Sequence record: MW314855.1
Source of the DNA: Mycobacterium phage phiGD23-1
Reading direction: 5' to 3' (one strand)
Length of the DNA: 60,535 bases
Part shown: in pieces, positions 26,076-58,311 of the stretch
Numbering within the stretch: the first letter of the stretch is position 1
Layout: each line of letters opens with the position of its first letter
Position numbers and translations under genes: made by a program
The notes under the pieces: generated by a model
The model's input: only the letters and a program-made list of their open reading frames with translations
What the model was told of the DNA's origin: nothing
Database searches by the model: none

Positions 26076-26396
26076 CTACGGCTGGCTGTTCCAATGGGCT
26101 AGGTCTTCATCGTCGATCAGTGTGACGACTATCTGGGCGATCCGCTCATCACTCTCGTCAGTGCCGTAGTCCACGATCCACGCCCAGATGTCGTAGCCGC
26201 CGTCGCCGAATCCTGCCGAAAACTGCACCCCGGACCCGTACTTACTGAATAGGTTGTGACCACTACCGATTCCTGGATACTTGGCTGGGGCAAAAGCGGG
26301 GTCGGTGATCGCGGCCATGGCCGAGTCGACCGAGACGCCGCCGATGCGTTCCCATCGACCGTTGCGGCCTGGGGCTGGTGTTGGTGGTTCACCCAT
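26076..26396 (-). CDS. Hypothetical protein (106 aa), reverse-oriented moron preceded by a SAS-like element
   Basis: Only minus-strand gene in a forward block; start codon is the ATG of the conserved 44-nt element E. Confidence 0.5.
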   Translation of the reverse strand: MGEPPTPAPGRNGRWERIGGVSVDSAMAAITDPAFAPAKYPGIGSGHNLFSKYGSGVQFSAGFGDGGYDIWAWIVDYGTDESDERIAQIVVTLIDDEDLAHWNSQP

Positions 26397-26437
26397 CCCT
26401 CAATTTTACGCCGTTGCAGTCGAAGTCGCGGTGTCTA
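26394..26437 (-). promoter_or_regulatory. SAS-like 44-nt element E (minus strand): TAGACACCGCGACTTCGACTGCAACGGCGTAAAATTGAGGGATG
   Basis: Matches consensus TAGACACCGC-N21-wAAwTTGAGGTATG; ends at the start codon of 26076..26396. Confidence 0.7.
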
Positions 26438-26881: not shown

Positions 26882-27229
26882 GTGAACATGGCCGACTGGC
26901 AGCTGCCGCCACTTGCTCAAGACGGCTGGGGCCTAGCGACCTGGGTAGTAATAGCATTCGTCGTCATGTGTTTCCTCGGCATCCTGTGGACGCTGCAACA
27001 CTTCGACCTCAAAGCCATCCGGCACCAAACAGAGAACTCCCACGACACCAACCTGCGTGACGACATCGACGAGATACGCGAGATGGTCCGCGACGGAATG
27101 GCCGACATCCGCAGCGATATCTCCGGTATCCGAAAAGACATCGGAGGACTGCGCGGAGAGCTGCGCACCGAACGCGAAGAACGCATCGAATCCGACGCCC
27201 GCATATGGCGGGGACCCTGGAAGGCTTAG
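26882..27229 (+). CDS. Membrane protein with coiled-coil C-terminal domain
   Basis: 115 aa, N-terminal TM helix, charged repeat-rich C-terminus. Confidence 0.4.
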   Translation: MNMADWQLPPLAQDGWGLATWVVIAFVVMCFLGILWTLQHFDLKAIRHQTENSHDTNLRDDIDEIREMVRDGMADIRSDISGIRKDIGGLRGELRTEREERIESDARIWRGPWKA

Positions 27230-27267
27230 ACCCCGCCGTTAGCGCTTACCGCCAATAGAATTGGGGT

Positions 27268-27522
27268 ATGACAGCGGGGCAATGGTTTGGAACCGTTCTT
27301 ATGATCGTGTTCGGAGTGTGGTTCGTTGGATTCAATATCCTCCTTTGGGTAGGCGACCGCATAGATAAACGGAACCGCGCCGAACTGGCAGACATCAGTC
27401 GGGACTTCGACGCGCTAGGCCCAAATCCGAGCCTTGAGGAGATGCAGCCAGCGCTAGATCGTCTCGCCGCCTACCGAATCAGGTTTGAGAACTGGCGCTC
27501 GCCCACCAGTAATCCGACCTGA
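27268..27522 (+). CDS. Small membrane protein
   Basis: 84 aa, N-terminal TM helices. Confidence 0.4.
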   Translation: MTAGQWFGTVLMIVFGVWFVGFNILLWVGDRIDKRNRAELADISRDFDALGPNPSLEEMQPALDRLAAYRIRFENWRSPTSNPT

Positions 27523-29065: not shown

Positions 29066-29067
29066 GT

Positions 29068-30014: not shown

Positions 30015-30197
30015 TCACGACCTCCAGTCCTGAGGAACCGGCCGCCCCTCGGATACGTCCCGAGCGCATGCCCGCATGCCGTATTCGATCGCTCCCGAGT
30101 AGAACCTCGAGTATCGGCCGGCGAAGGTCCGCAAGATCCAATTGGCCAACCGTATCGCCCCGCGCTCAACAACGGTAGCGCCGCCAAGTTCGCTCAT
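30015..30197 (-). CDS. Hypothetical 60-aa protein preceded by SAS-like element F
   Basis: Its start codon is the ATG of the conserved 44-nt element. Confidence 0.45.
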   Translation of the reverse strand: MSELGGATVVERGAIRLANWILRTFAGRYSRFYSGAIEYGMRACARDVSEGRPVPQDWRS

Positions 30198-30238
30198 ACC
30201 CCAATTGTCCCGCGTTTCAGGCGAAGTCGCGGTGTCTA
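30195..30238 (-). promoter_or_regulatory. SAS-like 44-nt element F (minus strand): TAGACACCGCGACTTCGCCTGAAACGCGGGACAATTGGGGTATG; its TAG is the stop codon of 30236..30457
   Basis: Matches the consensus; exact stop-to-start spacing of 44 nt. Confidence 0.7.
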
Positions 30239-32900: not shown

Positions 32901-32976
32901 GGCAAAATTGCCACAGAATTGCTTGCGCTTGCGACGGTTAGCCGTTACAGTCGTCCGCATGGGAAGCAAAATTGCC
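32901..32976. promoter_or_regulatory. Two direct copies of GCAAAATTGCC (32902-32912 and 32966-32976), each near-palindromic, flanking the Cro-like start
   Basis: 11-nt exact direct repeat 64 bp apart; both contain the TTGCC/GGCAA half-site found in the 18-bp palindrome. Confidence 0.4.
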
Positions 32977-45896: not shown

Positions 45897-46210
45897 GTGA
45901 CGAACCTTCGGACGCACAGAAGCTCATAGCGGAAGTGATAGCCACGCACCGCGCTTTATTCGATGGAGAGGCTTGCGACGCCTGCGACTGGAAGTTCACC
46001 AATGAGTATTACGGGCACGACGAACACGTTGCCGTAGAGGTGGATAAAGCCCTTGGAGGACTCACGCGGAAGCGGCGGATTGACTATCAATGGCGCGAGA
46101 CGGGCGAGGTGCATCACGACCGATTCTTTGAAGGGAAGCCCGTCCCCAAGACGCGGCTGCACTATGTGCAGCAGTCCCGTTGGGCGTCTGGCTGGACGGT
46201 GACCGAATGA
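45893..46210 (+). CDS. Hypothetical protein
   Basis: ORF. Confidence 0.3.
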   Translation: MSDEPSDAQKLIAEVIATHRALFDGEACDACDWKFTNEYYGHDEHVAVEVDKALGGLTRKRRIDYQWRETGEVHHDRFFEGKPVPKTRLHYVQQSRWASGWTVTE

Positions 46211-46490
46211 GCTACATCGACATGTTCGGAATCGAGTATGGCGGCTGCGGTGACTGTGATTGTGATCATGGTTGTCAGGGCGTTGGCTCCGACGATGAGG
46301 CCAAGTTCTACCCCGAGGCTTCCGATGACTGACTACCAAGACACCGGTAGCCGACGGAAACCTACGGCATACACCGAAACGGGGGCCGCTGAGCGGGTGT
46401 GCCCGGACTGTAGTGCCCCAGAAGGACATCCCTGTAGATGGATAGCCATGGATGGGCAGGGGGATTTAGGGAAACCAAGGCATTGGCCGC

Positions 46491-46832
46491 ATGAGACACG
46501 TTGGAGGAAATGAAATGCGTGACGATATTCACCCTGGACCGCGCATCATCTCCGGTAAAGCGGAACTACCCTGCCTGAAACCGGAGCCCTGGATGATCCA
46601 GGCGTCCTGCGCCACCGCAGACCCGGACGCGTTTTTCCCCCATAAGCGTGGCGACGGTGATAGCGAGTCGATCACCGTGCAGTACCAATACGCCAAGAAG
46701 ATATGCCGCTCATGCCCAGTCAGGGTTGAGTGTTTGACCTACGCGATCGTCAACGACGAACGCGACGGGATCTACGGCGGCTTAGGCCCTCGTGAGCGCG
46801 CGAAGATCATGCGTAACAGGGAGGCAAGCTGA
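46491..46832 (+). CDS. whiB: WhiB-family transcription factor
   Basis: Four conserved Cys (C…C…CxxC) and GIYGG-like turn (DGIYGG). Confidence 0.7.
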   Translation: MRHVGGNEMRDDIHPGPRIISGKAELPCLKPEPWMIQASCATADPDAFFPHKRGDGDSESITVQYQYAKKICRSCPVRVECLTYAIVNDERDGIYGGLGPRERAKIMRNREAS

Positions 46833-47146
46833 TGCCGCACTCAAGCCCTACCGACTGGATAGCCGGTGGAAGTGTCGCCGCAGACATCGTTGGATGCCTC
46901 ACCGGTCTGGTCGCGGACCTGTCCTGGCAGGATAAAGCGGCGTGCCGTGGACTCCCTACGGAGTGGTGGTTCCCGGACCAAGGCGGCAGCCGGGAATGTA
47001 AGCGGGCCAAGGAAATCTGCCACGGCTGCCCAGTCAAACTCCAATGCCTCCAATTCGCGATAGAGGTACACGACCAGCACGGAATTTACGGGGAGCTGTC
47101 ATTGAAGGACAGGCGCAGGTGGAACCAGGAAAGGAAAGCGGGCTAG
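46832..47146 (+). CDS. whiB: WhiB-family transcription factor (second paralog)
   Basis: C…CxxCP…C pattern and HGIYGE. Confidence 0.7.
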   Translation: MPHSSPTDWIAGGSVAADIVGCLTGLVADLSWQDKAACRGLPTEWWFPDQGGSRECKRAKEICHGCPVKLQCLQFAIEVHDQHGIYGELSLKDRRRWNQERKAG

Positions 47147-47187
47147 ACACCGCGAATGTCAGTGTATCGGAGGATAATTGAGGTATG
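47144..47187 (+). promoter_or_regulatory. SAS-like 44-nt element G: TAGACACCGCGAATGTCAGTGTATCGGAGGATAATTGAGGTATG
   Basis: TAG is the stop of the second whiB; ATG is the start of 47185..47616. Confidence 0.7.
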
Positions 47188-47616
47188 GGAATGACTGATT
47201 TACAGAACGTCCACGAGCGCATTGCGGGCAAGCGTATAGCCTCCGTCGAGGCCGACGGTACGAGGCTGGTGCTAAACGATGGCACTGTGCTGCATCTCTA
47301 CATGTCAGACAGTGACTGTTGTGCTTCCGCCGATGGGAAGTGGGTAATCCAGCCGGACGCGCTGGAGGCGATTATTACCGGCGTTCAGGTTACACCAGAC
47401 GCGGATCGGAGCGGTTATGACGGTGACGGAAATACCAACTACGCCACCATCTCAATTCTGCACAACCAGAACCCCATTGCCCTTGCAGACTGCTATGCCA
47501 ATGACGGTAATGGGGGCTACTACTTCTCCGTGCTATCCCTCCGTGTTGTCATGCCCGGTGACGAAGATGACGTCAAGGTGGAAGTCCTGAACTCTGACTC
47601 CTCGTCCAGCGATTGA
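47185..47616 (+). CDS. Hypothetical protein
   Basis: ORF following the SAS-like element. Confidence 0.4.
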   Translation: MGMTDLQNVHERIAGKRIASVEADGTRLVLNDGTVLHLYMSDSDCCASADGKWVIQPDALEAIITGVQVTPDADRSGYDGDGNTNYATISILHNQNPIALADCYANDGNGGYYFSVLSLRVVMPGDEDDVKVEVLNSDSSSSD

Positions 47617-47630
47617 GGAGGTAGTGAGAG

Positions 47631-47924
47631 TTGAGTGCTGAACCGCTGCAATGGGACCACAACCCAGATATTCGCGTCCCAAAGAATGGGTGCCGCGCCG
47701 AAGTTGACGGCGGTGCTTACATTCTGTTCAAGTACGGCGCTAGTTCGTGGCAGGTGCTTTTCAGCACTGGGTGGCATATACCCGATGAGGTCTATCTCGG
47801 CGACAGCGAATCAGACGCACTAGCCGCAGCAGAAGCTCACCATATCGCCATTAGGCAGAGAACGATCTACCGTCGAACGGGCAGGAGTGACGATGCCGCA
47901 GCGGATTCAGCGGAAGCGCACTAG
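47631..47924 (+). CDS. Hypothetical protein (TTG start)
   Basis: ORF. Confidence 0.3.
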   Translation: MSAEPLQWDHNPDIRVPKNGCRAEVDGGAYILFKYGASSWQVLFSTGWHIPDEVYLGDSESDALAAAEAHHIAIRQRTIYRRTGRSDDAAADSAEAH

Positions 47925-48261
47925 GGGTTGGCGAATGCCCGAGGGTGCTATCTACGTCGGGCGACCGAGCCAATGGGGCAACCCGTTTCGACCTGTTCTC
48001 GTCGGTGGCGAGTGGCTCATAGAGGATGACAACGGCGTCCAGTACGACGGGTTCGGGAGCAAGGTAAGCGCTATCGGTCGGTGCGTTGCGCTCTACCGGT
48101 CGCTCGATATGACGTTCATGACAGACGCAGACCTAGACGAGTTCGTCGCGCCGCTACGGGGCCACGATCTCGCCTGCTGGTGCTCTCTCGATTCCCCTTG
48201 TCATGCAGACGTGCTGCTTGAACTCGCTAACGATCCACCGTCGAACGGAGAAGCTTTGTGA
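47887..48261 (+). CDS. DUF4326 domain protein
   Basis: WGNPF…LACWCSLDSPCHADVLLELAN signature. Confidence 0.55.
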   Translation: MTMPQRIQRKRTRGWRMPEGAIYVGRPSQWGNPFRPVLVGGEWLIEDDNGVQYDGFGSKVSAIGRCVALYRSLDMTFMTDADLDEFVAPLRGHDLACWCSLDSPCHADVLLELANDPPSNGEAL

Positions 48262-48400
48262 GCGAACTACGTAGAGCACTGTTGGTAGCCAAAGCGGAAG
48301 CGGCACTTATCCCCACCGGCCGACGGGCTGAGCTCGACCGCAGATTCACTGCGGCCCAGAAGGCGGCACAGGCTCACGCCACGTACAGGAGGTCCGCTTA

Positions 48401-49078
48401 GTGTCCGTCTCCGACAGCTTCTTTCTCGATAAAGGCTCCCAACACAAGCTCCGTGAAGAGTTGGCCAGCATCCCCCGCATGATCGGGGAGCTGTCCGTCA
48501 CCCTCACCCGCCAGGCTCGCATCCAGAGGCCAGGGTTGAGTATGTCCCGAAGGCCCAAGCCTGAGTCTCAGGTCCCCATCCATATCGGGGCACACAACGC
48601 CGCTGACGTACTGCACAACTGCCTAGGTACGTGGGTGAGGCTGGTATGCGAACAACGAGCGATCGTGTGGGATAAGGGCAACGACATCATCACGCTGGCC
48701 AAGTGGCTGCGAGTCAACATGATCGCCCTAGCCCTCACTGAAGGTTCAGAAGAAGCGTACGAGGACATCAAAGCCGCTATCGATGACTGCTGGCGACAGA
48801 TAGACATCCCCGCCGACGATGACATTGTGATCGACCGAGGACGAGTACATGAAGCGAACAAACACATCGTCACCGCCGACACCATCGAACCTATCGCCCG
48901 CCGGATAGGGGAGATGGGAAAGAAGCTGAATGCGCAGCGGGTGCACTCGCTTACCCGTGGTGGGCATCTGCGTCCAGTCTCTAGCGACCCGGACACGGGT
49001 AAGAAGTTCTACCGACTGGGGGATGTGCTGCACGCGCACAACAACTGCGAGAAACGAGACCGAAAGAAGGGCGCATGA
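48401..49078 (+). CDS. Hypothetical protein (225 aa)
   Basis: ORF. Confidence 0.35.
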   Translation: MSVSDSFFLDKGSQHKLREELASIPRMIGELSVTLTRQARIQRPGLSMSRRPKPESQVPIHIGAHNAADVLHNCLGTWVRLVCEQRAIVWDKGNDIITLAKWLRVNMIALALTEGSEEAYEDIKAAIDDCWRQIDIPADDDIVIDRGRVHEANKHIVTADTIEPIARRIGEMGKKLNAQRVHSLTRGGHLRPVSSDPDTGKKFYRLGDVLHAHNNCEKRDRKKGA

Positions 49079-49275
49079 GCGACGGACGCGGCATGTACAT
49101 GAAGTACCGAGTTGAGCGGATGGACGGCAAGGATATGGGGCCATGTTTCATCCTTGAATACAAGAAGGATCGCCACGCGCGGGTGGCACTTGCGGCGTAT
49201 GCCGACGCGTGCGCCGAGGACAATCCTGGACTAGCCCAAGACCTGCGGTGGACGCTAGAGGAGCTGGAGCGGTGA
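49075..49275 (+). CDS. Hypothetical protein, paralog of the C-terminal segment of 38386..39381
   Basis: Shared motif KYRVERxDGK…CFxLEY…. Confidence 0.35.
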   Translation: MSDGRGMYMKYRVERMDGKDMGPCFILEYKKDRHARVALAAYADACAEDNPGLAQDLRWTLEELER

Positions 49276-49851
49276 GGGTCGGGACCTGTCCGAAGTGTAA
49301 GCACTTGGAAGGTCGACACATCCAGTCCACGTACTTCGATGAAGAGACGTGGACTGGCCGATTCGTGTACGCCAGGTGCGATTGTGGCTGCACCCACTAC
49401 GTCGTAGTGGAGCCGGTCTAGTGTCGGCCCTCGACTGTGAGGGGAGTGACCTAGATCCTGGTTGGTGCTGCACCCATAGATGCGATTTCAGGGACCCTAG
49501 GCATCCGCACTGCTGGCAGAACTGTGACGAAGAAGATTGCGCCGCCCCTGAGTGTGATTGGGTTGAGTAGTTCACGCTGGTCGCACATACTGCGCAGGCC
49601 AAGGTATCTCACGCATCTTCCACGCCTGCGTAGGGTTGGCCGCAGTGACCCAAACGATAGGCATATCGCGTCCGGGAACTACCCGAGTGGTAGTTAGACA
49701 CTCAACTTCACCACCGGTTGCGGTGGTTACGTAGACACGCATTCTAGCTTCAATACCCATACGTCTAGCGTCGGTCTTGCCAAAAGATCTGTAAAGAAAA
49801 ATCTATGCGACACCGCGTTATGGCAGTGCCTTATGGCAAGCCGCAAAGGGA

Positions 49852-50112
49852 GTGAAACTGATGAACGTATGGATAGTCTCTGCGCATCGGTCCTGGGGCG
49901 ACAGGATTGAATACCACGGACACAGGGGGGATACCCACCGCTGGATGGGCTGGACGCGACCCATACCCAAGGTGGGGGAAGTTATTGAAACTGAATTGAA
50001 GTCCGGACGGGCGGCCCGCTTTCGGATAGTTGAGGTTGAGCGCGGGTACGGCACGGATGATATGTGGTGGGCCACAACCTCGGACGCGCCCATTTATGGA
50101 GCGACGACGTAA
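49852..50112 (+). CDS. Hypothetical protein (GTG start)
   Basis: ORF after an ORF-poor region. Confidence 0.35.
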   Translation: MKLMNVWIVSAHRSWGDRIEYHGHRGDTHRWMGWTRPIPKVGEVIETELKSGRAARFRIVEVERGYGTDDMWWATTSDAPIYGATT

Positions 50113-50158
50113 CTGCCTCCACCTTGCATAAGTATATCGGTTCTGATATATTAATGAG

Positions 50159-50491
50159 GTGACCGACGAAAAGCCTCTCCGCTGGATAGGTACCTCACTT
50201 GAGGACCTACGGGACTTCCCCGAAGCGGCACGGCAGGACGCCGGTTACCAACTGGATAGGGTTCAGCACGGCCTAGAGCCCCACGACTGGAAGCCAATGC
50301 CAACAGTCGGCAAGGGCTGCCGCGAGATACGCGTACGCACCGAAGACGGCGCGTACCGTGTGTTCTACGTAGCCACCCTTGGGGATGTGGTGTTCGTACT
50401 GCACAGCTTCGTCAAGAAGTCACAGAAGACTTCCCAGCAAGACATCAACACCGGTAAGGCTCGATACAAGAAAGCGCAGGAGGAACTATGA
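50159..50491 (+). CDS. higB: HigB/RelE-family toxin (Gp49-like, PF05973-type)
   Basis: …RVFYVATLGDVVFVLHSFVKKSQKTSQQDINTGKAR… matches the Gp49/HigB-like pattern; followed by an overlapping HTH antitoxin gene. Confidence 0.75.
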   Translation: MTDEKPLRWIGTSLEDLRDFPEAARQDAGYQLDRVQHGLEPHDWKPMPTVGKGCREIRVRTEDGAYRVFYVATLGDVVFVLHSFVKKSQKTSQQDINTGKARYKKAQEEL

Positions 50492-50739
50492 GCGTATGGG
50501 ACGACATCGCCGACACCCCGCGCGAAGCGGAGAACCTTCGCGTGCGGTCTGAGCTGATGATGGCAATCGAAAAGAAGATCAACGAGCGCGAATGGACCCA
50601 GGTCCAGGCCGCCGAAGCACTCGGACTGACCCAGCCTCGGGTGTCGGATCTGCTGCGCGGCAAGATCTCCAAGTTCTCCTTGGATGCTCTCGTGGACATC
50701 GCTTCCGGGTTGGATGTGCACGTGAAGGTGTGCGTCTGA
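50488..50739 (+). CDS. higA: HigA-like XRE-family antitoxin
   Basis: …LRVRSELMMAIEKKINEREWTQVQAAEALGLTQPRVSDLLRGKISKFSLDALVDIASGLDV… canonical HigA-type partner; ATGA overlap with the toxin. Confidence 0.75.
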   Translation: MSVWDDIADTPREAENLRVRSELMMAIEKKINEREWTQVQAAEALGLTQPRVSDLLRGKISKFSLDALVDIASGLDVHVKVCV

Positions 50740-51010
50740 TTGCGACACGCCGACCAGGGGATATACCCCTTAACCGCTGTCAAGTAGTAAACTGCGCATA
50801 GGCGCGACTTACACCCATTCTTTTAAACCCCCATCGACATTTGTTCGGTGGGGGTTTTTCTATGCCCAAACGGAGGTTCCCTTATGCCTCTGTCTCGTGT
50901 CCGCTGCTGCATCCCCTGTGGCCGTATCCGCTACGCCCCCTGCTCTGCAGGGTGTCGAGTAGATCCCGAGAACGACCCAACAAGCTGGACAGAACAGGTG
51001 CCGCCGAGCG

Positions 51011-51235
51011 ATGAAGCTGAGTAAGGAAGCGCGCAATACCGTCGCCGACTGCATCAGTAAGGGCATCCACCTGACGCTGGACGTTCAGTGCGATGGCGAG
51101 CCGATGGGCGGCTGGTGCGATAAGTGCGAGAAACCGTCGATGGTCGAAGTGCAACTGCGTGGCATCTCCACTGACGCCGTGTACGACCTCGGACCCGCCG
51201 TCGTATGTGCAAACCATGAGGCTGGCGATGATTGA
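51011..51235 (+). CDS. Hypothetical Cys-rich protein
   Basis: ORF. Confidence 0.3.
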   Translation: MKLSKEARNTVADCISKGIHLTLDVQCDGEPMGGWCDKCEKPSMVEVQLRGISTDAVYDLGPAVVCANHEAGDD

Positions 51236-51479
51236 ATGTCTTGGTTGCGGCTCGACGGTGGGGCAAGACGGCGATTGCCCGCGCCCCGAACACTGCGGAA
51301 ACTGCCCACCTTGGGACTGTGACGAATGCGGCCAGCAGTGCTCGATCAACACCCCTTGCGGGTGCTGGATTTTCCTTGAAGGCATGAACCTCGCCGACAT
51401 CAAGGCGGTACTCGCCGCAGCCGATCTGAGTGTCAATGTGGAGGTGCCGCCATGCTCGACAGATTCTTCGCGGCACTAG
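51228..51479 (+). CDS. Hypothetical Cys-rich protein
   Basis: ATGATTGA start/stop overlap with upstream. Confidence 0.3.
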   Translation: MIECLGCGSTVGQDGDCPRPEHCGNCPPWDCDECGQQCSINTPCGCWIFLEGMNLADIKAVLAAADLSVNVEVPPCSTDSSRH

Positions 51480-51748
51480 CCGGCGCCATGGCCCCTCCAC
51501 TCGTGGCCATGTGTGAGCGCATCGCGGATAAGAAGATCCCTGACGACACCGTGCCGAAGTTCATGGACGGCCTGCTGGATATCGCCCGCGACGGCGTTGA
51601 CCGCGCCGTGAGTGTGGTGCAGACGTCCGCTGACGGTATTGCCGGTAGCGCGGAAGCTGAACTAGGTCAGCTCGGCTCGGAGATTAGGGGAGTGGTCAAA
51701 GCGGCCAACCCCATAGATATTCTCGGCAGCCTGTTCGGGCGACGCTAG
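51452..51748 (+). CDS. Hypothetical protein
   Basis: ORF ending in the TAG of element A. Confidence 0.35.
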   Translation: MLDRFFAALAGAMAPPLVAMCERIADKKIPDDTVPKFMDGLLDIARDGVDRAVSVVQTSADGIAGSAEAELGQLGSEIRGVVKAANPIDILGSLFGRR

Positions 51749-51789
51749 ACACCGCTGATGTCGCTGCACCGCAGTAAAATTGAGGTATG
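51746..51789 (+). promoter_or_regulatory. SAS-like 44-nt element A: TAGACACCGCTGATGTCGCTGCACCGCAGTAAAATTGAGGTATG
   Basis: Stop-to-start spacer of 44 nt. Confidence 0.7.
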
Positions 51790-51963
51790 AGCATTGAGAC
51801 CGAGCGGCAGTTGAATCGCCGCTGCATTGAGCTGCAAGACGAGATAATCCGCTGGGGCGAGAAGGCGCAGTGGGCGCTTGAGCAAGATGACACCGGATGG
51901 TGGGGCGATGTCCTCGGTGGCATCGTCAAGCGCGGCAAGCTGATGGCAGAGAAGGGCACCTAA
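51787..51963 (+). CDS. Hypothetical 58-aa protein
   Basis: Starts at the ATG of element A. Confidence 0.4.
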   Translation: MSIETERQLNRRCIELQDEIIRWGEKAQWALEQDDTGWWGDVLGGIVKRGKLMAEKGT

Positions 51964-52110
51964 CGATGTGCCCTCCACGCTGTCAGAACTGCATCCATCC
52001 GCAGCATGACCACGAAGGCTGGTTTGGTCGCTGCACCCGCGACGACTGCGAATGTAAGGCAATGCAGGACTGACTTGCCCCTACAGCCTCTCCGTTCTAC
52101 TATCGAACAC

Positions 52111-52356
52111 ATGTTCGACAAGGTGTCATACCGTATCGAAGGTGATGGACCCGTCACAGCGGTACTCACTTACCAAAACCGGGAGTACCGGCACACCTCC
52201 CGAACCATGTGGCTCGGACACGAAGACGGCATGCCCCAAGGCTCCATCCAACTCGACGAGCATGTGTGGGCGCGGCTACAGCGCATCAACGGAACCATAG
52301 AAGCCACCATCACCGACTCTAAGACTGGTGAAAGCTACACCCTCACACCTGAATAG
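52111..52356 (+). CDS. Hypothetical protein
   Basis: ORF ending at the TAG of element B. Confidence 0.3.
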   Translation: MFDKVSYRIEGDGPVTAVLTYQNREYRHTSRTMWLGHEDGMPQGSIQLDEHVWARLQRINGTIEATITDSKTGESYTLTPE

Positions 52357-52397
52357 ACACCGCGACTTACGCTGTAGCTCGGTAAAATTGAGGTATG
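52354..52397 (+). promoter_or_regulatory. SAS-like 44-nt element B: TAGACACCGCGACTTACGCTGTAGCTCGGTAAAATTGAGGTATG
   Basis: Stop-to-start spacer. Confidence 0.7.
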
Positions 52398-52631
52398 GAT
52401 GATCCCGAGATTGAAGTCGCTGAGGCGGTGTGTAAACGGCACAACTGGGACGGCATGATGTTTTGCGCTTGCACTGCCGCTGCTCGTGAAGCTTTGAAGC
52501 GAGTGGGCGCCGATCTGCAATCCGTCGATGGCGTCTTAGGTCTGCTTCATCATCGAGGGCTTGTTGACTCCGAGCGCAATAGAGCTGATGTGAAAGCTGC
52601 CCTCGAAATCGTACAGAGGTACACCCGATGA
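52395..52631 (+). CDS. Hypothetical protein
   Basis: Starts at the ATG of element B. Confidence 0.4.
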   Translation: MDDPEIEVAEAVCKRHNWDGMMFCACTAAAREALKRVGADLQSVDGVLGLLHHRGLVDSERNRADVKAALEIVQRYTR

Positions 52632-52903
52632 CTGAACCATCTCAAGCCCATATAGACCGGGCACGTGAACTCGGCCTCTCTTTCGATCCTTCTGATACAT
52701 CGGATGAAGAGTTAAGCCGTGCTATCGCAACGTATGAGCGGGTTTACATCGAGGCGATGACCGAGAATGCTGGTAGGGACACTGATACTCCTACTGAGCG
52801 CCGCAAGATGCTGGGCGTATGGACTCAGCGCGATGAAGAAGAGGCCAAGGAAGCCGCTGAACGGCGGCGGATGTTCGGCTCCCGACGAATCCCACCCGCC
52901 TAG
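52628..52903 (+). CDS. Hypothetical protein
   Basis: ORF ending at the TAG of element C. Confidence 0.35.
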   Translation: MTEPSQAHIDRARELGLSFDPSDTSDEELSRAIATYERVYIEAMTENAGRDTDTPTERRKMLGVWTQRDEEEAKEAAERRRMFGSRRIPPA

Positions 52904-52945
52904 ACACCGCTGATTCCTCTGAAACGTCGGATAATTGAAGGTATG
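52901..52945 (+). promoter_or_regulatory. SAS-like 45-nt element C: TAGACACCGCTGATTCCTCTGAAACGTCGGATAATTGAAGGTATG
   Basis: Stop-to-start spacer. Confidence 0.7.
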
Positions 52946-53215
52946 GACATCACCGAGAAGCCATTGACCAACCTGGCTGACACAATACATACAGCCCTGA
53001 TCGGACACAGGCCGGACGACTACGCCTGCTACTACAAGCAGCTTTTCAATGTGTTTGGAGCGCCCGGCATCCCGAACACCTACGAGGCGGTACTCAAGCG
53101 TTACGGCAGGGTAATCCATCGAGAGACATTCTGGCGGCGCAAGAGCGCAGAGAAGCAATGCATCGCATGGAAGCGCTTGTATGACGCCGTCGTACTACCA
53201 CCTCCACAGTCCTAG
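52943..53215 (+). CDS. Hypothetical protein
   Basis: Between elements C and D. Confidence 0.4.
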   Translation: MDITEKPLTNLADTIHTALIGHRPDDYACYYKQLFNVFGAPGIPNTYEAVLKRYGRVIHRETFWRRKSAEKQCIAWKRLYDAVVLPPPQS

Positions 53216-53256
53216 ACACCGCTGATCCCGTTGAAACGCGGGATAATTGAGGTATG
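53213..53256 (+). promoter_or_regulatory. SAS-like 44-nt element D: TAGACACCGCTGATCCCGTTGAAACGCGGGATAATTGAGGTATG
   Basis: Stop-to-start spacer. Confidence 0.7.
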
Positions 53257-53421
53257 AACGACGAATTGAGCTTCCTGCTTGAGGCGTCGCCGGAAGAGTG
53301 GGATACCTTCATTGGATGCCCACATACAGGCAAGTCCTACACGGAAGTGGGACGGCTAACCGGCGAGGTGTTCACGCGCTGCTGCGACTGTCACACGGCT
53401 TTGCCTAATCTCCCGTCCTAG
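53254..53421 (+). CDS. Hypothetical 55-aa Cys-rich protein
   Basis: Starts at the ATG of element D. Confidence 0.35.
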   Translation: MNDELSFLLEASPEEWDTFIGCPHTGKSYTEVGRLTGEVFTRCCDCHTALPNLPS

Positions 53422-53695
53422 CTGAATCCCTTTGGGAGGTAATCATGCTTGATGGTCAACCGTTGGGCGAGTACCCGGAACTGGGGCCGACGCACACCGC
53501 CGAGTATTTCGAGCTCCTAACACTGGCCTACTTAGCCAGGCTCATGGGTTACCACATCTAGTGCCATGCCCCTCACTGCTAACCAGCTCCGCATCCTAGA
53601 GGCGTTGCAGCGGTTACGTATAGCCCGTACTGAGGGCGATGTTGACGCCGAGCTCGTGGCCTACAGCCGCATGGATGAGCTACTGGATCGTGAAC

Positions 53696-53977
53696 CTAGG
53701 GGCATAGGTTCCGTTTCGCCGATCGCGCCATAGCCAACAGATTGGCTGGTGTCGCGTTCGGATAGTTGGAGTGCGAGGCGACCTGCTCGGGGGTTTCCCC
53801 GTTGCGCAAGTCATTGCACATGCCGTTCCCGGCGGCCAGTAGGAACGGCCGGGACTGCCACATCACTTGAAAACCCTGCCCGGACAGTTCGTCCAGGTAG
53901 GCGTCATCGTCCGCGTACGCCGCGGGCGCGAAAACAATGCTGGCCGCTACGGCGGCTGCAGCTGCGATCTTGATCAT
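53696..53977 (-). CDS. DUF732-like secreted protein (signal peptide, two Cys), reverse-oriented
   Basis: MIKIAAAAAVAASIVFAPAAYA signal peptide; …DDDAYLDELSGQGF…AAGNGMCNDLRNGETPEQVA…NLCP pattern. Confidence 0.5.
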   Translation of the reverse strand: MIKIAAAAAVAASIVFAPAAYADDDAYLDELSGQGFQVMWQSRPFLLAAGNGMCNDLRNGETPEQVASHSNYPNATPANLLAMARSAKRNLCP

Positions 53978-54182
53978 TGGCGGATCGTAGACCTCCACCC
54001 CGACGGGTACAGGCGAAACGGGAGATCAGATGGCCGTGCAGCACTGCGAGGGTTGCCCCTCGTGAGGCGATCCAAGGATTGGGAGACCCCCCGAATTCGT
54101 AAGCGAGACTTGGGACGGGCGGTCGACCCAACTACCTGTTCTTGCGGGGACGCCGAATGCCCAGAATGCATGGACTGGCTAG

Positions 54183-54779
54183 ATGACTAGCCTAATCGAC
54201 ACATGCGCGGTATTTGGGTGTGGCATAAAGCGTCGGACGCGCGGTCTATGTCCATCGCATTACCAGCGATGGCGCCGACACGGGGATCCACTAGCTGGAG
54301 GCCTGCCAGCCGGCGCACCATTTGAGGATAGGTATTGGTCCAAGGTGGATAAGTCGGGCCGCTGCTGGCTATGGACCGGGGCGAAGAATGATGCCGGATA
54401 CGGTCAGATCAGCGTGGGCGGGAAGATGGTTTACGCCCACCGCCTCTCCCTGGAGATGTCCACGGGGAGCACAATCCCACCCGGGATGGACGTTGACCAC
54501 ATGTGCCATACCCGGCACTGCGTAAACCCTAATCACCTCAGGCTGGCGACGCGTAAGCAGAACTTGGAAAATAGGCGGACCGCCAACTCATCATCTAAGT
54601 CGGGCATCCGTGGCGTCTCATACTCAATCAGCTCACGTCGTTACCTAAAGCCCTGGCTAGCGCAGGTCAGGTCAAAGGGGCAGCCGACCTACTCGGGCTA
54701 TTTCAGCACTAAAGAGGAAGCTGCCGCAGCGGTCGTTTCAGCTCGACTTCGCATGATGACACACAGTCAAGAGGATTAG
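54183..54779 (+). CDS. HNH endonuclease with AP2-like DNA-binding domain
   Basis: …CWLWTGAKNDAGYGQISVGGKMVYAHR…DVDHMCHTRHCVNPNHL… HNH_3; C-terminal SGIRGVSYS…WLAQV AP2-like segment. Confidence 0.65.
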   Translation: MTSLIDTCAVFGCGIKRRTRGLCPSHYQRWRRHGDPLAGGLPAGAPFEDRYWSKVDKSGRCWLWTGAKNDAGYGQISVGGKMVYAHRLSLEMSTGSTIPPGMDVDHMCHTRHCVNPNHLRLATRKQNLENRRTANSSSKSGIRGVSYSISSRRYLKPWLAQVRSKGQPTYSGYFSTKEEAAAAVVSARLRMMTHSQED

Positions 54780-54781
54780 CG

Positions 54782-56056
54782 ATGACCGGGCGTCGTCTCG
54801 GGGTAGCGATCACCACCCACAACCGCAGGGATGTTCTCCTCAACGCGTTAACGCATTGGATCGAGCACACCTCGGCTGATGTTCCGATTGTTGTTGTGGA
54901 CGACGGCAGCGACGAGCCGCTGTGCCTTGAGGGCTGGCGGGGTATCCCGGTGCATCGAGTGCCGAGTGTGAGTGTTGTTCGCCATCCATTACCTATGGGG
55001 ATAGCGGTGGCGAAGAACCGATGCATCGCCGAGCTCATGGACTTGGGGTGCGACCACCTGTTTCTGGCTGACGACGATGTGTGGCCCACCGTAGACGAGT
55101 GGTGGCAGCCTTACGTTGAGTCGCCGGAACCGCATCTGTCGTTCCAGTGGCCCAGCGGGGGCCGGCACAGCGTCACTCACCAGGACGAGCAGCATTTCGC
55201 TATCGGATTCCCCCGCGGGGTTCTCCTATACGCCGAACGCCGAGTGATCGACACGGTGGGCGGCATGGACACCGGATATGGGGCGCACGGCGGCGAACAC
55301 GTCGACTGGTCACAGAGAATCCACGACGCAGGGTTGACGCGATGGCCGTTCGCCGATGTCCGAGGATCACACAACTTGATCTACTCCCGCGACAAAGCCG
55401 AAGGAAACCGAACAGGTTCTTCCCGGTTTGAGCTTCCCGAGCGTGCCCGGATGTGTGAGGCCAATGGAAACCGTTGGGGCCACAAGCACCCAACATGGCC
55501 GTACTTTCCATTCCGGGGAGGCGAGGGCGTCCAGGACTACCAGTTAGGCCCGTACTTCCCGCCCGCGGAGCATTATTCGCTGCTGCGGCATGTGGTCGGT
55601 TTGAGACCTTCCGGTGTGGCTTTGGAGTTTGGGGTGGGTAAAGGCGAATCGACCCGCATCATTGCCGAGCACATGCCGGTGATCGGATTCGACAGCTTCA
55701 CCGGACTGCCTGAGGATTGGCGCGACGGATTCCCTAAGGGGTCGTTCGCGCATAAACCACCAGCCATCAACAACACTCGCCTAGTGATAGGTCGGTATGC
55801 CGACACCCTGCCAGGGTTCACGTTCCCTGAGTGTGGTTTGGTGCATATCGACTGCGACCTGTACTCGTCCACGGCAACAGCTCTGGAATATCTACAGCTC
55901 AAGCCTGGAACTTATGTCGTTTTTGATGAGTGGCACAGCTACGACGGCTGCGAAGACCACGAGATGAAAGCCTGGCGCGAATATGCCGACCGCACCGGCA
56001 TCAACTGGTGTGTGGTTGGGCATTCGCATGAGGCTTGGGCGATTCGGATCACCTAG
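54782..56056 (+). CDS. Bifunctional glycosyltransferase family 2 / TylF-type class I O-methyltransferase
   Basis: N-terminal GVAITTHNRRDVLLNAL…VVVDDGSDEP; C-terminal LEFGVGKGESTRII…VHIDCDLYSSTATAL. Confidence 0.6.
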   Translation: MTGRRLGVAITTHNRRDVLLNALTHWIEHTSADVPIVVVDDGSDEPLCLEGWRGIPVHRVPSVSVVRHPLPMGIAVAKNRCIAELMDLGCDHLFLADDDVWPTVDEWWQPYVESPEPHLSFQWPSGGRHSVTHQDEQHFAIGFPRGVLLYAERRVIDTVGGMDTGYGAHGGEHVDWSQRIHDAGLTRWPFADVRGSHNLIYSRDKAEGNRTGSSRFELPERARMCEANGNRWGHKHPTWPYFPFRGGEGVQDYQLGPYFPPAEHYSLLRHVVGLRPSGVALEFGVGKGESTRIIAEHMPVIGFDSFTGLPEDWRDGFPKGSFAHKPPAINNTRLVIGRYADTLPGFTFPECGLVHIDCDLYSSTATALEYLQLKPGTYVVFDEWHSYDGCEDHEMKAWREYADRTGINWCVVGHSHEAWAIRIT

Positions 56057-56062
56057 GGAGTT

Positions 56063-56884
56063 GTGTTGCGAGTCATCCTCTTTGTGTTCGCGGGCCGTAA
56101 AGCCAATATGCAACTCCAGGTACCGTACATCAAACGCATCCTGGCTGAGCATCCGAATGTTGAATACGACATCTGGAACCTCGCCCGCGACCCCAAGGAC
56201 GCGGAGTATCTGCAAACCATCACGGGCGAGCGGATCACCGTCCGTAACGACTTCCATGGCGGATGCCATTGGACCGGTTTCAACAAGGTGTGGTGGTACT
56301 ACGCCCAACCCGAGTATCGGGACTGTTTGTTCGTCAAGGTCGATGACGATGACGTGTTCTTCGAGACCGCACGCTTCGGTGAATACCTTGAGGCGATAGA
56401 CAACAACCGCGGCAGCGTTGTCTCCGCGCTGACCGTGAACAACGGCGCCTCAACATGGTTGGAGCCGCTGATTTGGCGCGGCTTCGAGAACCTGAACATC
56501 CCTTTGTTGGATGTGCACATGTCCGGCGACTACGCCCACATGTCACACGAGCATTTCCTGACCAATTGGCGGGATGTGACTGGTCAACCCAACCAGGTCA
56601 TCCCGACGACGGACTGGTTGTCGATCAACTGCATCGGACTCGACCACCCCACCCTGAAACGCATCGCAGACCTACTGGACACCCCTTCGCCTGCCCATAT
56701 CGCAGGCAGGGATTGGCCGCACGGCTTCAAGATCGGTGACGAAGGTGCAGCCAATATGCAGCCCCGAGTCATCCATAGAGGGTTTGTGGTGTCGCACCTA
56801 TCGTTTGGACCTCAAGAACTCCCCGATGAGACGTGGGACCAGCTGCGCGCTGGTTATGCGAAGGTCGCAGGGGAGTACCTGTGA
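56063..56884 (+). CDS. Putative glycosyltransferase (GT-A-like, DDD motif)
   Basis: VKVDDDDVFF motif; context. Confidence 0.35.
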   Translation: MLRVILFVFAGRKANMQLQVPYIKRILAEHPNVEYDIWNLARDPKDAEYLQTITGERITVRNDFHGGCHWTGFNKVWWYYAQPEYRDCLFVKVDDDDVFFETARFGEYLEAIDNNRGSVVSALTVNNGASTWLEPLIWRGFENLNIPLLDVHMSGDYAHMSHEHFLTNWRDVTGQPNQVIPTTDWLSINCIGLDHPTLKRIADLLDTPSPAHIAGRDWPHGFKIGDEGAANMQPRVIHRGFVVSHLSFGPQELPDETWDQLRAGYAKVAGEYL

Positions 56885-57576
56885 ACGTCGCCGTGATCAT
56901 CCCGTTCCGGGACCGCGGTAAGGACCCTCTAAGGCCCGCGAATCTGCGACGCGTCCTGATGGGCATGGAGGGGCTGTACCGCATCCATGTTGTTGATGAC
57001 GGCCGCTCAGGCTATGAGTCGTTCAATCGATCCGCCGCATATAACCGCGGTGCCGACATGGTTGACGCCGATGTACTTATCTACTGCGAATCAGATCTGC
57101 TGGTCGACCCTATCCAGATTCGGGAAGCGGTCGCGCTGGCTTCGTTGACACCAGGTTTAGTCGTTCCGTTCTCACGCTTCATGGCCATTGCCCCCGAGGA
57201 CTCGGTTCGCGTCCGAGACCTTGAGTTAGAGCCCGAAGAAGCTGTATCGCATCAGGTCCGAGGCGACCGTCAGTCGATCGGTGCCGTCAATGTCGTCTCC
57301 CGGGAATCACTCTCACTGATCGGTCAATACGACGAGTCGTTTGAGGGTGCTTGGTATGACGATGACGCGATGTGCCGAGCGTTTGAGGTGTGCTGCGGCC
57401 CAACCCGCTTCATAGACGGCCCCGGATATCACCTGTACCACCTACCCGGCGCCAGCGGCGATCATTTGACCGACGCTGATCGTGCCGCCACTGAACGCAA
57501 CAAGGCCCGCTACCAGCTGTACCGGCAGGCAACAACACCGGAACGTATCCGCGAACTCACCGCAGGGGGTGTGTGA
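56881..57576 (+). CDS. Glycosyltransferase family 2
   Basis: VAVIIPFRDRG…HVVDDGRSG… motif; GTG start overlapping the upstream stop (track ORF 56833..57576). Confidence 0.5.
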   Translation: MNVAVIIPFRDRGKDPLRPANLRRVLMGMEGLYRIHVVDDGRSGYESFNRSAAYNRGADMVDADVLIYCESDLLVDPIQIREAVALASLTPGLVVPFSRFMAIAPEDSVRVRDLELEPEEAVSHQVRGDRQSIGAVNVVSRESLSLIGQYDESFEGAWYDDDAMCRAFEVCCGPTRFIDGPGYHLYHLPGASGDHLTDADRAATERNKARYQLYRQATTPERIRELTAGGV

Positions 57577-57821
57577 TGGCCGACCATCTCATCACCGGCC
57601 CTGACGGCATCCAGTACACCTTGGCGGAGTGGGTGAACTCCCACATCGTTGGAACTTTCGAGCAGATGCTCCCCGGCGGGAAGACCCGCAAGGGCGGTGC
57701 CTGCTCGTGTGGGTGGCGCACCCCGCCTTTCGATCCTGTCGGTGATCGCGCTAAAGCGATGGCCGATGAACATAAGCGTCTAGAAGACCTCGCTGATGAG
57801 ATGCGAAGGGAGAATGGTTAA
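57573..57821 (+). CDS. Hypothetical protein
   Basis: ORF. Confidence 0.3.
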   Translation: MMADHLITGPDGIQYTLAEWVNSHIVGTFEQMLPGGKTRKGGACSCGWRTPPFDPVGDRAKAMADEHKRLEDLADEMRRENG

Positions 57822-58237: not shown

Positions 58238-58311
58238 GCACACGTACTAGGCGCCCCTACCCGTCCAAAGGTAGGACCAGTTAAGTCAAGTCGAGAATTG
58301 AGGGAACAACT

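Follow-up and report, generated by a model that had tools for sequence, protein, structure and literature searches.

A 44-nt sequence recurs between small genes of a temperate mycobacteriophage, running in most cases from the stop codon of one gene into the ATG of the next, and the question is what such a fixed stop-to-start element does. The window analysed, a 60,535-nt stretch of Mycobacterium phage phiGD23-1 (MW314855.1), corresponds to prophiGD21-2 of cluster MabA1 and is circularly permuted. All seven copies listed in an earlier note were present with the coordinates and architecture described, including the TGAAACG common to three of them, but the count was incomplete: an eighth copy at 27227-27270(+), with the sequence TAGACCCCGC...AGAATTGGGGTATG, had been missed. 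A position-weight-matrix scan of both strands recovered exactly eight full copies (scores of 30-67 bits) and no other match of at least 8 bits in the window; seven copies are 44 nt long and one (52901-52945) is 45 nt. The exact 5' box, TAGACACCGC, occurred seven times in the window. With at most one mismatch it occurred 12 times in comparison to 3.7 ± 1.9 in shuffled sequences (12 was reached in none of 100), and the 3' box was found nine times versus 0.72 expected. Two degenerate versions proposed earlier to precede 58312 and 47631 fell below the matrix threshold and are not family members; an ordinary Shine-Dalgarno site, GAGGAGG, precedes 47631, and no start site is mapped for MAB_1779 and MAB_1758, the ATCC 19977 homologues of the genes at 58312 and 47631, respectively. 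We found this repeat family described nowhere in the searchable literature.

The decisive test, whether transcripts start at the element, had been suggested in the earlier note and was provided by a published dRNA-seq table (PMC4974804, Dataset S1; columns for position, read depth, 5'UTR length, and -50 to +2 sequence) that covers the prophage of Mycobacterium abscessus ATCC 19977, a strain other than the host of the window. This prophage, prophiATCC19977-1 (CU458896 1754373-1816169), is listed as identical to prophiGD17-2, the window shares 100% identity with prophiGD17-2 over 46000-54000 and 99.1% near attR, and seven of the eight ATCC 19977 element copies match window copies exactly. A TSS was located at the A of the ATG for all eight ATCC 19977 elements, the 5'UTR length was 0 for the seven listed as primary, and the printed upstream string was the element in seven of the eight rows, that of 1814774(-) being a table artefact. 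The copy at 47144..47187(+), which separates the second WhiB gene from a DUF7448 gene (Pfam; MAB_1757 homologue), has G at -12 in a GATAAT -10 at 47173-47178 and its +1 at the start-codon A 47185; it corresponds to TSS 1773427 (depth 165.5, 5'UTR 0, upstream string identical to the window). The copies at 51746..51789(+) (TAAAAT at 51775-51780, +1 at A 51787, MAB_1766 homologue) and 52354..52397(+) (TAAAAT, +1 at A 52395, MAB_1768 homologue, an annotated HTH protein) both have T at -12 and correspond to TSSs 1778029 and 1778637, with depths of 1887.5 and 1808, respectively, and 5'UTRs of 0. Those at 52901..52945(+) (45 nt, 7-nt discriminator, +1 at A 52943, MAB_1770 homologue) and 53213..53256(+) (+1 at A 53254, MAB_1771 homologue) both have GATAAT with G at -12 and correspond to TSSs 1779185 (depth 508) and 1779496 (depth 266), again with 5'UTRs of 0. 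Near attR, the eighth copy at 27227..27270(+), with TAGACCCCGC as its 5' box, a TAGAAT -10, and +1 at A 27268 (MAB_1815 homologue), corresponds to TSS 1815646 (depth 736, 5'UTR 0, upstream string identical). The copy at 26394..26437(-), identical in prophiGD17-2 (record positions 60400-60443), heads a lone leftward gene, the MAB_1812c homologue, in a divergent intergenic region; it has T at -12 in TAAAAT and +1 at A 26396, and corresponds to TSS 1814774(-) (depth 733.5, 5'UTR 0). For the copy at 30195..30238(-), which adjoins the integrase and is flanked by prophiGD21-2 gene 6 (DUF3263 HTH) and gene 5, the -10 is GACAAT and +1 is predicted at 30197; its positional equivalent in ATCC 19977 is a different variant with TSS 1756936(-) at a depth of 497. 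Of the 30 prophage TSSs classed as primary or secondary, 8 are at elements, two of them among the three deepest, and the genes driven by the elements are listed in the sheet 'Leaderless mRNA transcripts' of the same study. As in mycobacterial leaderless mRNAs, the TSS is the first base of the start codon. We interpret each element as a compact, portable promoter producing leaderless mRNA, with a probability of about 0.88.

Within the element, the -10 hexamer (T/G)AnAAT occupies positions 30-35 and is followed by the discriminator TGAGG(T/G) at positions 36-41, which is 6 nt long, or 7 nt in 45-nt copies. All family copies have A31, A33, A34, and T35, an invariance that is partly by construction since the family filter demanded A.AAT; an unfiltered matrix harvest gave the same picture. 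The ATG begins 6 nt after the hexamer (position 42) in 125 instances and 7 nt after it (position 43) in 25, and the geometry is that of leaderless promoters, with A(-11) and T(-7) in a -10 that ends 6-8 nt before +1. TSSs of the copies with T(-12) (depths of 1887.5, 1808, 733.5, and 736) were 3.6-fold deeper than those of the copies with G(-12) (165.5, 508, 266, and 497), with complete separation of the two groups (Mann-Whitney p = 0.029, 4 versus 4 copies). A consensus scan of 46500-54000 revealed no canonical TTGACA-like -35 located 16-18 bp from the -10; the bases at -35 to -30 are CCGC(G/T)(A/G), TAGACA lies 23 bp from the -10, and the element does not have the -35 hexamer of a canonical sigma-70/SigA promoter. 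The sigma factor is probably of the SigA type. The missing canonical -35 counts against the promoter reading, as does the strongly conserved 5' box, which a simple -10-only promoter does not explain.

Transcript levels in the ATCC 19977 lysogen changed sharply at the elements. RPKM values rose from 0.92 for MAB_1765 to 46.3 for MAB_1766 across the 51746..51789 element and from 2.1 for MAB_1756 to 13.9 for MAB_1757 across the 47144..47187 element, MAB_1812c reached 36 in comparison to ~1 for the genes beside it, and values of 74.9 and 81.5 were obtained for MAB_1768 and MAB_1770, respectively. The RPKM dropped after MAB_1771 and after MAB_1761 (RNA-seq). The ORF at the 5' end is translated, as in leaderless transcripts: Ribo-seq RPKM values were 25, 28.5, 21, 47.2, and 14 for MAB_1757, MAB_1766, MAB_1768, MAB_1770, and MAB_1812c, respectively, and peptides were detected for MAB_1767-1770, including four for MAB_1768. 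The earlier description of a start-associated, orientation- and cluster-specific repeat marking small genes expressed in lysogeny is borne out. A TA pair was reported to be strongly transcribed in MabA1 lysogens, in contrast to flanking phage genes (Dedrick 2021), a wording that could suggest a silent region; the quantitative ATCC 19977 table contradicts such silence.

Translational coupling and RNA processing, both suggested in the earlier note, find no support: in the dRNA-seq data, primary transcripts begin with the A of the ATG, and the silence of the upstream genes leaves no upstream RNA for either. More broadly, the element could be a SAS-like RNA signal for intercistronic initiation or termination-reinitiation on a polycistronic mRNA, in which case GAGG would be the ribosome-binding site. 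The presence of GAGG, the almost invariant ATG, and a stop-to-start distance that is fixed as coupling would want are consistent with such a signal, and lytic read-through transcripts would contain the element, so it may have a secondary role of this kind. We nevertheless consider this reading highly improbable, given that transcription starts at the ATG with silent genes upstream and transcribed and translated genes downstream, that GAGG is only 1 nt before the ATG and outside the usual Shine-Dalgarno spacing, and that no sequence is held in common with SAS, GGGATAGGAGCCC. Furthermore, the strict inclusion of the upstream stop codon claimed previously holds for only part of the family: TAG closes the upstream ORF in ~75% of 149 instances in related prophages, and in the window it does so in most copies but not in 26394-26437(-), where the region is divergent and no ORF of at least 25 aa ends at the TAG. 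TAG, TAA, and TGA within the element probably just end whichever ORF enters it. On the leaderless-promoter reading, by contrast, the A of the ATG is transcription start and first start-codon base together; as mycobacteria translate AUG-initial mRNA without a Shine-Dalgarno site, GAGG is not required as a ribosome-binding site.

A hairpin in the variable segment, another feature noted earlier, is formed in a subset of copies. The copy at 53213..53256(+) has a clean 7-bp spacer hairpin (ATCCCGT/GCGGGAT), and a 6-bp helix of the GGATAAT class (columns 14-19 with 26-31) was paired in 78.7% of cells versus 41-57% in slid registers, a result matched in 0 of 500 shuffles, with compensatory changes at four pairs. 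The GGATAAT-class helix would suit a site of RNA processing, or a terminator/insulator hairpin at which upstream transcripts end, with the mapped 5' ends being cleavage products, but such a role is very unlikely. The 5' ends were obtained with dRNA-seq, a protocol for primary transcripts, there is almost no upstream RNA and thus nothing to cleave, the GTAAAAT class does not form this helix, RNAalifold found no consensus structure, and in-context fold z-scores ranged from -1.8 to +1.4. The scan of 46500-54000 yielded four terminator-like sites, fewer than in shuffles, and none at an element.

Conservation in related phages, put forward in the earlier note as a check, extends across the cluster. 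In keeping with a portable element, the 73 variants found there link 36 clusters of upstream flanks with 69 of downstream flanks in 82 combinations, a single upstream gene joins nine different downstream genes via the element, and the gp60 family has the element in MabA1 and is without it in MabA2. Identical variants lie between many different gene pairs, breakpoints are strongly asymmetric (514 pairs have the upstream flank alone in common and 47 the downstream flank alone), and the phage encodes an ERF-family recombinase, all of which would agree with an element that is chiefly a recombination linker, providing short homology at gene boundaries for cassette shuffling. We regard this as unlikely: the breakpoint fraction of 0.82 at elements is barely above the 0.76 and 0.61 at adjacent ordinary junctions, so the entire region is mosaic, and recombination accounts for neither the exact -10/+1 geometry nor the measured promoter activity. 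More likely, the shuffling is a side effect of a functional sequence being conserved.

The promoter reading leaves a role to be assigned to the 5' box TAGACACCGC, which at -41 to -32 is probably a factor-binding site or promoter-proximal signal and not a -35. It could be the site for a dedicated trans-acting regulator of host or phage origin, making the eight promoters a switchable regulon, for example through a WhiB-sigma region 4 complex in lytic growth; this proposal would complement the promoter explanation rather than replace it, and we hold it tentatively, as possible at somewhat less than even odds. The ten-base box is nearly invariant across the 73 variants, is kept in the ~25% of instances whose TAG is no stop codon, and sits at a fixed position in activator/sigma region 4 territory, yet without a -35 consensus. 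In both MabA1 and MabA2, a pair of WhiB genes immediately precedes the first + strand copy, and the strong host promoter of MAB_2162 carries TAGACCCCGC at the same position, whereas the remaining host promoters lack the box there. Against a dedicated regulator, a boxless degenerate copy retains a weak TSS (depth 143.5), the differential-expression lists of the dRNA-seq study include only two element-driven genes, gp61 and gp62, both HTH proteins, each occur in just 7 of 11 element-bearing records, and the immunity repressors of two element carriers (264 and 146 aa) are 32% identical over 75 aa. Two WhiBs and one HTH, the phage DNA-binding proteins that MabA1 and MabA2 have in common, reach ~1-2 RPKM in the lysogen while the element promoters fire; no phage factor is therefore needed for firing, and the WhiB paralogs named earlier as candidate binders are not required.

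Among known systems, the promoter motif ESAS of Cluster K comes closest, and the earlier comparison to SAS/ESAS was apt in concept. ESAS was first described in PMC3203893 and re-read in Adephagia as a repeated promoter-containing 46-47-bp motif (PMC11373665). Like ESAS, the MabA element is a cluster-specific, promoter-bearing, intergenic repeat of ~45 bp, present in one orientation and 7 to ~10 copies in the non-structural half of a temperate mycobacteriophage, and preceding genes of many families, some expressed in lysogeny. The two have zero sequence similarity. ESAS combines SigA-like -35 and -10 hexamers, separated by 17-18 bp, with an imperfect inverted repeat of 15-17 bp. It is located in gaps >50 bp and precedes a distinct 13-bp SAS/Shine-Dalgarno site, and its transcripts therefore have leaders. 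The MabA element, in contrast, has no -35 consensus, a different 5' box, a 6-7-bp helix only in a subset, and a start fused to the ATG; it occupies the entire 38-nt gap and in most instances provides the stop codon of the upstream gene. Promoter activity rests on mapped starts for the MabA element and is so far a prediction for ESAS. The SAS motif itself, 13-bp GGGATAGGAGCCC with at most two mismatches, 3-9 bp before the start codon and with a true AGGAG (PMC3203893), is absent from the element sequences. Mycobacterial -10-only leaderless promoters (Shell et al. 2015, PMC4633059) and the SigA-like leaderless ones predicted in Cluster O (PMC4351075) share with the element a TSS at the A of the ATG and an A/T-anchored -10 located 6-7 nt upstream, and translation is independent of Shine-Dalgarno sites for both the mycobacterial promoters and the element. 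Ordinary leaderless promoters are individually diverse with only the -10 in common, whereas the MabA element is a full 44-bp architecture with a 10-bp upstream box and conserved discriminator, in eight copies in one genome and 73 variants across the cluster. Stoperators, the immunity-repressor binding sites that block lysogen transcription (Cluster A/MabJ; PMC9283540, PMC9934374), are likewise short asymmetric repeats in tight intergenic gaps, with one orientation relative to transcription, and often overlap stop and start codons as MabA elements do. Genes downstream of the MabA element, however, are on in the lysogen, and its carriers have very different repressors, as described above.

Morons have unrelated individual promoters plus a terminator. 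In lambdoid prophages they are said, reportedly by Juhala and Hendrix in 2000, to be independently transcribed extra genes that the prophage expresses. Genes behind the MabA element are similarly small cargo with their own promoter, on in the lysogen amid silent operons, and their presence varies among related phages, with presence/absence polymorphism between collinear relatives. They differ from morons in relying on a single standard promoter module for many genes, and the terminator scan of 46500-54000 gave no site at an element.

On the promoter reading, host RNA polymerase drives the elements in the lysogen, and the result is islands of transcribed and translated small genes, a moron-like cargo, in the silent early-lytic region and also near both attachment junctions. 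Because each promoter starts at the ATG of the next gene, these small genes of unknown function stay on while the prophage is otherwise silent.

All seven copies of the element described in the earlier note were found at 26394-26437(-), 30195-30238(-), 47144-47187, 51746-51789, 52354-52397, 52901-52945, and 53213-53256 when the sequence was checked directly. Exact TAGACACCGC occurs seven times in the window, and allowing up to one mismatch gave 12 matches versus 3.7 ± 1.9 in shuffled sequences; the 3' box gave nine matches versus 0.72 expected. A 44-column weight matrix applied to both strands returned eight sites scoring 30 to 67 bits and no further site of 8 bits or more in the window. The eighth copy, at 27227-27270 on the plus strand, carries TAGACCCCGC and AGAATTGGGGTATG and was absent from the original list. 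The two degenerate versions proposed ahead of 58312 and 47631 fell below the matrix threshold, and the transcriptome data show no transcription start for the homologues of either one. The observation itself is confirmed and extended.

By its sequence, the window corresponds to a Mycobacterium abscessus prophage of cluster MabA1 in circularly permuted form, with the structural genes first, attP and the integrase at ∼27.8 to 29 kb, and the early genes from ∼33 kb. The region 46000-54000 is 100% identical to prophiGD17-2, GD43A-1, GD15-1, GD21-2, and GD11-1; 27750-35000 is 100% identical to prophiGD21-2 (MW584204), starting at the first base of that prophage record; and the attR-proximal part is 99.1% identical to both prophiGD17-2 and prophiGD21-2. 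On the basis of the identities across these three regions, the window is essentially prophiGD21-2. The offset between the window and prophiGD17-2 is 28130 at 46000 and 28817 at gene 74, and because of this shift of 687 bp the stretch 54000-58312 must hold extra DNA relative to prophiGD17-2. The latter prophage is identical to prophiATCC19977-1, located at 1754373-1816169 of the type-strain genome (Dedrick et al. 2021, Table 1).

Positions 30-35 of the element, (T/G)AnAAT, fit a -10 hexamer under mycobacterial promoter rules, and the ATG follows six bases on, a spacing that has the geometry of a leaderless transcript. For strain ATCC 19977, the differential RNA-seq of Miranda-CasoLuengo et al. 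(2016; PMC4974804) provides 7,218 mapped primary starts, and the study additionally measured RNA-seq, ribosome profiling, and proteomics. The element ATGs convert to 1773427, 1778029, 1778637, 1779185, 1779496, and 1815646 on the plus strand and to 1814774(-) and 1756936(-) on the minus strand of that genome, and Dataset S1 lists a start site at all eight, so that the question of whether transcripts start at the element is answered by the mapped starts in this strain. The seven that are primary starts have a "5'UTR length" of 0. The tabulated -50 to +2 string is the element itself in every case except the 1814774(-) row, where the string is a table artefact, and the strings of the six plus-strand copies match the window letter for letter; the copy at 26394-26437(-) is identical in prophiGD17-2, where TSS 1814774 falls. 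Element starts account for 8 of the 30 primary or secondary starts of the whole prophage and include the second and third strongest. The sheet "Leaderless mRNA transcripts" includes MAB_1757, 1766, 1768, 1770, 1771, 1812c, and 1815 (MAB_ numbers being those of the ATCC 19977 homologues), and the text of PMC4974804 mentions neither the prophage nor the motif. In the "primary promoter" column of Dataset S1, one constant string (TCGGGGCACCAACC...) is entered for all minus-strand genes with more than one TSS, evidently a spreadsheet artefact, and for this reason the promoter sequence printed for MAB_1812c is wrong and its position right.

Start-read depth was 1887.5, 1808, 733.5, and 736 for the four copies with T at -12 (counting the A of the ATG as +1) and 165.5, 508, 266, and 497 for the four with G, a complete separation (3.6-fold, p = 0.029) that is the expected result if positions 30-35 act as the -10 element. 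A SigF-type GGGTAT was also considered, in which case the start site would presumably fall inside the gene. Given the work of Shell et al. on leaderless translation, the GAGG located 1 nt from the ATG need not serve as a Shine-Dalgarno sequence.

The structural and most early prophage genes are at 0 to 3 RPKM in the ATCC 19977 lysogen, and the RPKM table shows expression stepping up exactly at the elements: from 2.1 for MAB_1756 (WhiB) to 13.9 for MAB_1757, a level kept through MAB_1761; from 0.92 for MAB_1765 to 46.3 for MAB_1766, with 75 to 94 through MAB_1770; and from 3.1 for MAB_1814 to 9.1 for MAB_1815, with MAB_1812c at 36 RPKM versus neighbors near 1. Approximately a dozen small genes of unknown function are expressed from elements amid silent DNA in this table, and their products are made, as judged by ribosome footprints of 14 to 47 RPKM for element-driven genes and by peptides for MAB_1767-1770. 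A short transcription unit begins at each of the eight copies. With the upstream genes silent, these 5' ends cannot be processing products of a longer RNA, nor is any upstream translation available for coupling, which speaks against the earlier proposals of an RNA processing site and a translational coupling signal; the mechanisms offered at that stage were not the right ones. We conclude that the element, active in lysogeny, is a standardized cassette carrying a leaderless promoter, a reading to which we assign a probability of roughly 0.9. Co-regulation across stress conditions was not apparent, as no element-driven genes other than MAB_1766 and MAB_1770 are in the differential-expression lists. 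Two other expressed loci were observed in this part of the prophage. A toxin-antitoxin pair at 50110-50739 (toxin 50159-50491, antitoxin 50488-50739) is served by a separate, canonical promoter (TTGCAT, 17 nt, TATATT) leading to a leaderless GTG start (TSS 1776401, depth 978), and its ribosome occupancies of 1177 and 1658 RPKM are by far the prophage maximum. The MAB_1773c homologue at 53696-53998(-), a leftward gene right after the element array, lacks the element; it is transcribed from a leaderless start of its own (TSS 1780219) and shows a high ribosome occupancy of 90 RPKM in the lysogen.

Conservation of the element in related phages was borne out by the INPHARED phage collection, in which it is present in 11 records only, all of them M. 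abscessus MabA1, MabA2, or MabA3 prophages, and a scan of IMG/VR added ∼70 element-bearing fragments from isolate-derived prophages. The instances harvested from these carriers number 155, with 73 distinct 44-nt variants. Positions 1-10, T14, T20-G21, and C25 are near-invariant across the family; A31, A33, A34, T35, and G37 are found in every copy, columns that the harvest filter partly imposed, and an unfiltered matrix harvest gave the same column conservation. Two classes differ at position 30, which is G in GGATAAT copies and T in GTAAAAT and TAGAAT copies. In GGATAAT-class copies such as 47144-47187, the TAG at 1-3, TAA at 32-34, and TGA at 36-38 close all three frames. Among MabA2 prophages, prophiGD02-2 has at least five copies within its first 30 kb and one element-bearing fragment was assigned to prophiGD90-1; the family therefore spans the present clusters HA and IA. 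A search of 596 Gb of genome collections with TAGACACCGC-N22-27-TTGAGG, too loose a pattern, yielded 120 matches, nearly all due to chance, and the sole matrix-positive one, in a Paenochrobactrum MAG, was also attributed to chance as it has no flanking similarity.

The element ATG opens a real ORF in essentially all instances (median 78 aa; shorter than 30 aa in 1 of 146), whereas the element TAG ends an upstream ORF of at least 40 aa in 111 of 149, so the strict inclusion of the upstream stop codon claimed earlier does not hold. In the others (33 after removal of duplicates), the upstream ORF stops short of the element or at its internal TAA (32-34) or TGA (36-38), or there is no upstream gene. 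The window copy at 26394-26437(-) lies in a divergent intergenic region, in front of a solitary leftward gene. The element is start-associated, not stop-associated, and since the sequence of the 5' box is kept without an upstream TAG stop, the box is an independent motif rather than a consequence of the stop codon. Approximately a dozen upstream ORFs in related prophages stop at the internal TAA or TGA and thus overlap the -10 region. At the prophiGD02-2 element 25090-25134, gene 72 is annotated from a TTG at 25108, inside the element; if the mapped start sites are taken as a guide, its true start is probably the ATG at 25132.

The spacer hairpin suggested from the sequence was retained in part. 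Within the GGATAAT class, a helix joining columns 14-19 with 26-31 had 78.7% of cells paired versus 41 to 57% in slid registers, a level reached in none of 500 shuffles, and compensatory changes were present at four pairs; the inner pairs fail in ∼40% of variants. The other sequence class does not form this helix, RNAalifold called no consensus structure, the mean hairpin z-score was only -0.58 over 73 variants, and in-context folds of the eight window copies gave unremarkable z-scores of -1.8 to +1.4. These values speak against a universal RNA hairpin. No terminator-like site was found at any element, and a terminator function was rejected accordingly.

The flanks of 150 instances fell into 36 upstream clusters, 69 downstream clusters, and 82 combinations. 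One identical variant lies between 7 upstream and 13 downstream families, and the second WhiB gene is joined via the element to nine different downstream genes. The breakpoint fraction was 0.82 at elements versus 0.76 and 0.61 at neighboring junctions; because these control junctions are almost as mosaic, we rejected the idea that elements are uniquely recombinogenic or a special recombination site. An analogy to integron attC sites presumably fails as well, there being neither an IntI-type integrase nor structural support for it. The upstream flank alone is common to 514 pairs and the downstream flank alone to 47, an asymmetry consistent with a promoter that stays in place while the genes downstream of it are exchanged. 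The element drives the gp60 family in MabA1, but in prophiGD02-2 this family starts from an ordinary coupled Shine-Dalgarno site. Matches of driven genes to Pfam and PHROGs were limited to DUF7448 and PHROG families of unknown function.

Several candidate readers of the 5' box were weighed. The box, at -41 to -32, is not a -35 element: the distance from its TAGACA to the -10 would be 23 bp, and scanning 46500-54000 for the consensus found no -35/-10 pair. The immunity repressor is an unlikely reader, as the element is common to prophiGD21-2 and prophiGD17-2, whose repressors are dissimilar (264 and 146 aa; 32% identity over 75 residues). The element-driven gp61 and gp62, annotated as HTH proteins, were rejected as readers because each occurs in only 7 of 11 carriers. 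Two WhiBs and one HTH protein are the DNA-binding phage proteins that MabA1 and MabA2 have in common, and they are at ∼1 to 2 RPKM where the promoters fire; host machinery therefore suffices in lysogeny. The WhiB paralogs, named earlier as possible binders, are excluded as required activators in lysogeny by their near-absent expression (RPKM ∼2, Ribo-seq 0 to 0.2). The two WhiB-family genes (Pfam PF02467) are in tandem at 46491-47146, directly upstream of the first plus-strand element; the second has 98% protein identity between MabA1 and MabA2 despite genome divergence, and both are essentially unexpressed in the lysogen. The GACAC within the box resembles the Streptomyces WhiA motif. A host regulon sharing the box was not supported by the part of the TSS table scanned, where only MAB_2162 has TAGACCCCGC at the same position. 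That strong host promoter (TSS 2175950, depth 6200) has the box at exactly -41 to -32 and a TAGCGT -10, which could be due to chance or to a host factor reading the box; elsewhere in the table, GACACCGC turns up in host sequences at scattered positions. A degenerate 39-nt relative (TAGAGGCTCAGGCGAAGTCGGCGGGATAGTTGAAGTATG), outside the window at ∼2246-2284(-) of the prophiGD17-2 record, lacks the 5' box and has a weak start (TSS 1756656, depth 143.5) at an ATG opening no annotated gene.

The box might serve as a regulator site, perhaps in lytic growth, a role that these results do not support. We tentatively offer, as a rather unlikely extension, that the element is a two-part switch, more than a strong -10 alone, in which a dedicated factor would read the invariant TAGACACCGC at -41 to -32 in place of -35 recognition. 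The candidate would be a host protein or, in lytic growth, a phage WhiB bound to sigma-A region 4, and all copies would form one regulon of leaderless cargo genes retuned by the phage between lysogeny and lytic growth. With the same reserve, since it combines stop codons in all three frames with a promoter and a start codon, the element might also be a plug-in socket through which MabA (HA/IA) prophages gain and express new genes.

Among known systems, the cassette matches mycobacterial leaderless promoters in their defining features and morons (independently transcribed prophage cargo genes) in most features, but it lacks the defining features of a stoperator, the Cluster A/MabJ repressor site. 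Its nearest analogue, the Cluster K ESAS, was initially reported as 17-bp inverted repeats beside a 13-bp start-associated sequence (SAS) and was re-read in 2024 as seven copies of a 46-47-bp intergenic motif with a SigA-like promoter, some of whose downstream genes are expressed in lysogeny. The likeness in concept to SAS/ESAS drawn earlier was a good analogy. The MabA element works alike, yet it is not a member: the two have no common sequence, and the MabA element has no -35 and no SAS, makes a leaderless transcript, fills a 38-nt gap, and usually includes the upstream stop codon. No prior description of it was found in the MabA prophage papers, the TSS paper, or full-text literature searches on the genes and related terms. 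The individual start sites were already public, and what appears to be new is their recognition as a single conserved family of 44-bp promoters.

Most clinical isolates of M. abscessus, a pathogen that is difficult to treat, carry prophages. Among the largest groups in a 2023 survey was cluster MabA (HA in current naming, MabA2-3 being in IA), with 150 and 44 members. The element explains which genes of MabA prophages are on in lysogeny, and why, and the genes that it drives form a short candidate list for prophage effects on host physiology, phage defense, and virulence. It corrects start-codon annotation, as in the one relative with a TTG start within the element, and provides a compact 44-bp leaderless promoter part for mycobacterial genetics with a natural range of about tenfold in start-site read depth. 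Beside the Cluster K ESAS, it is a second independent case of a standardized repeated promoter module in temperate mycobacteriophages, here with mapped starts.
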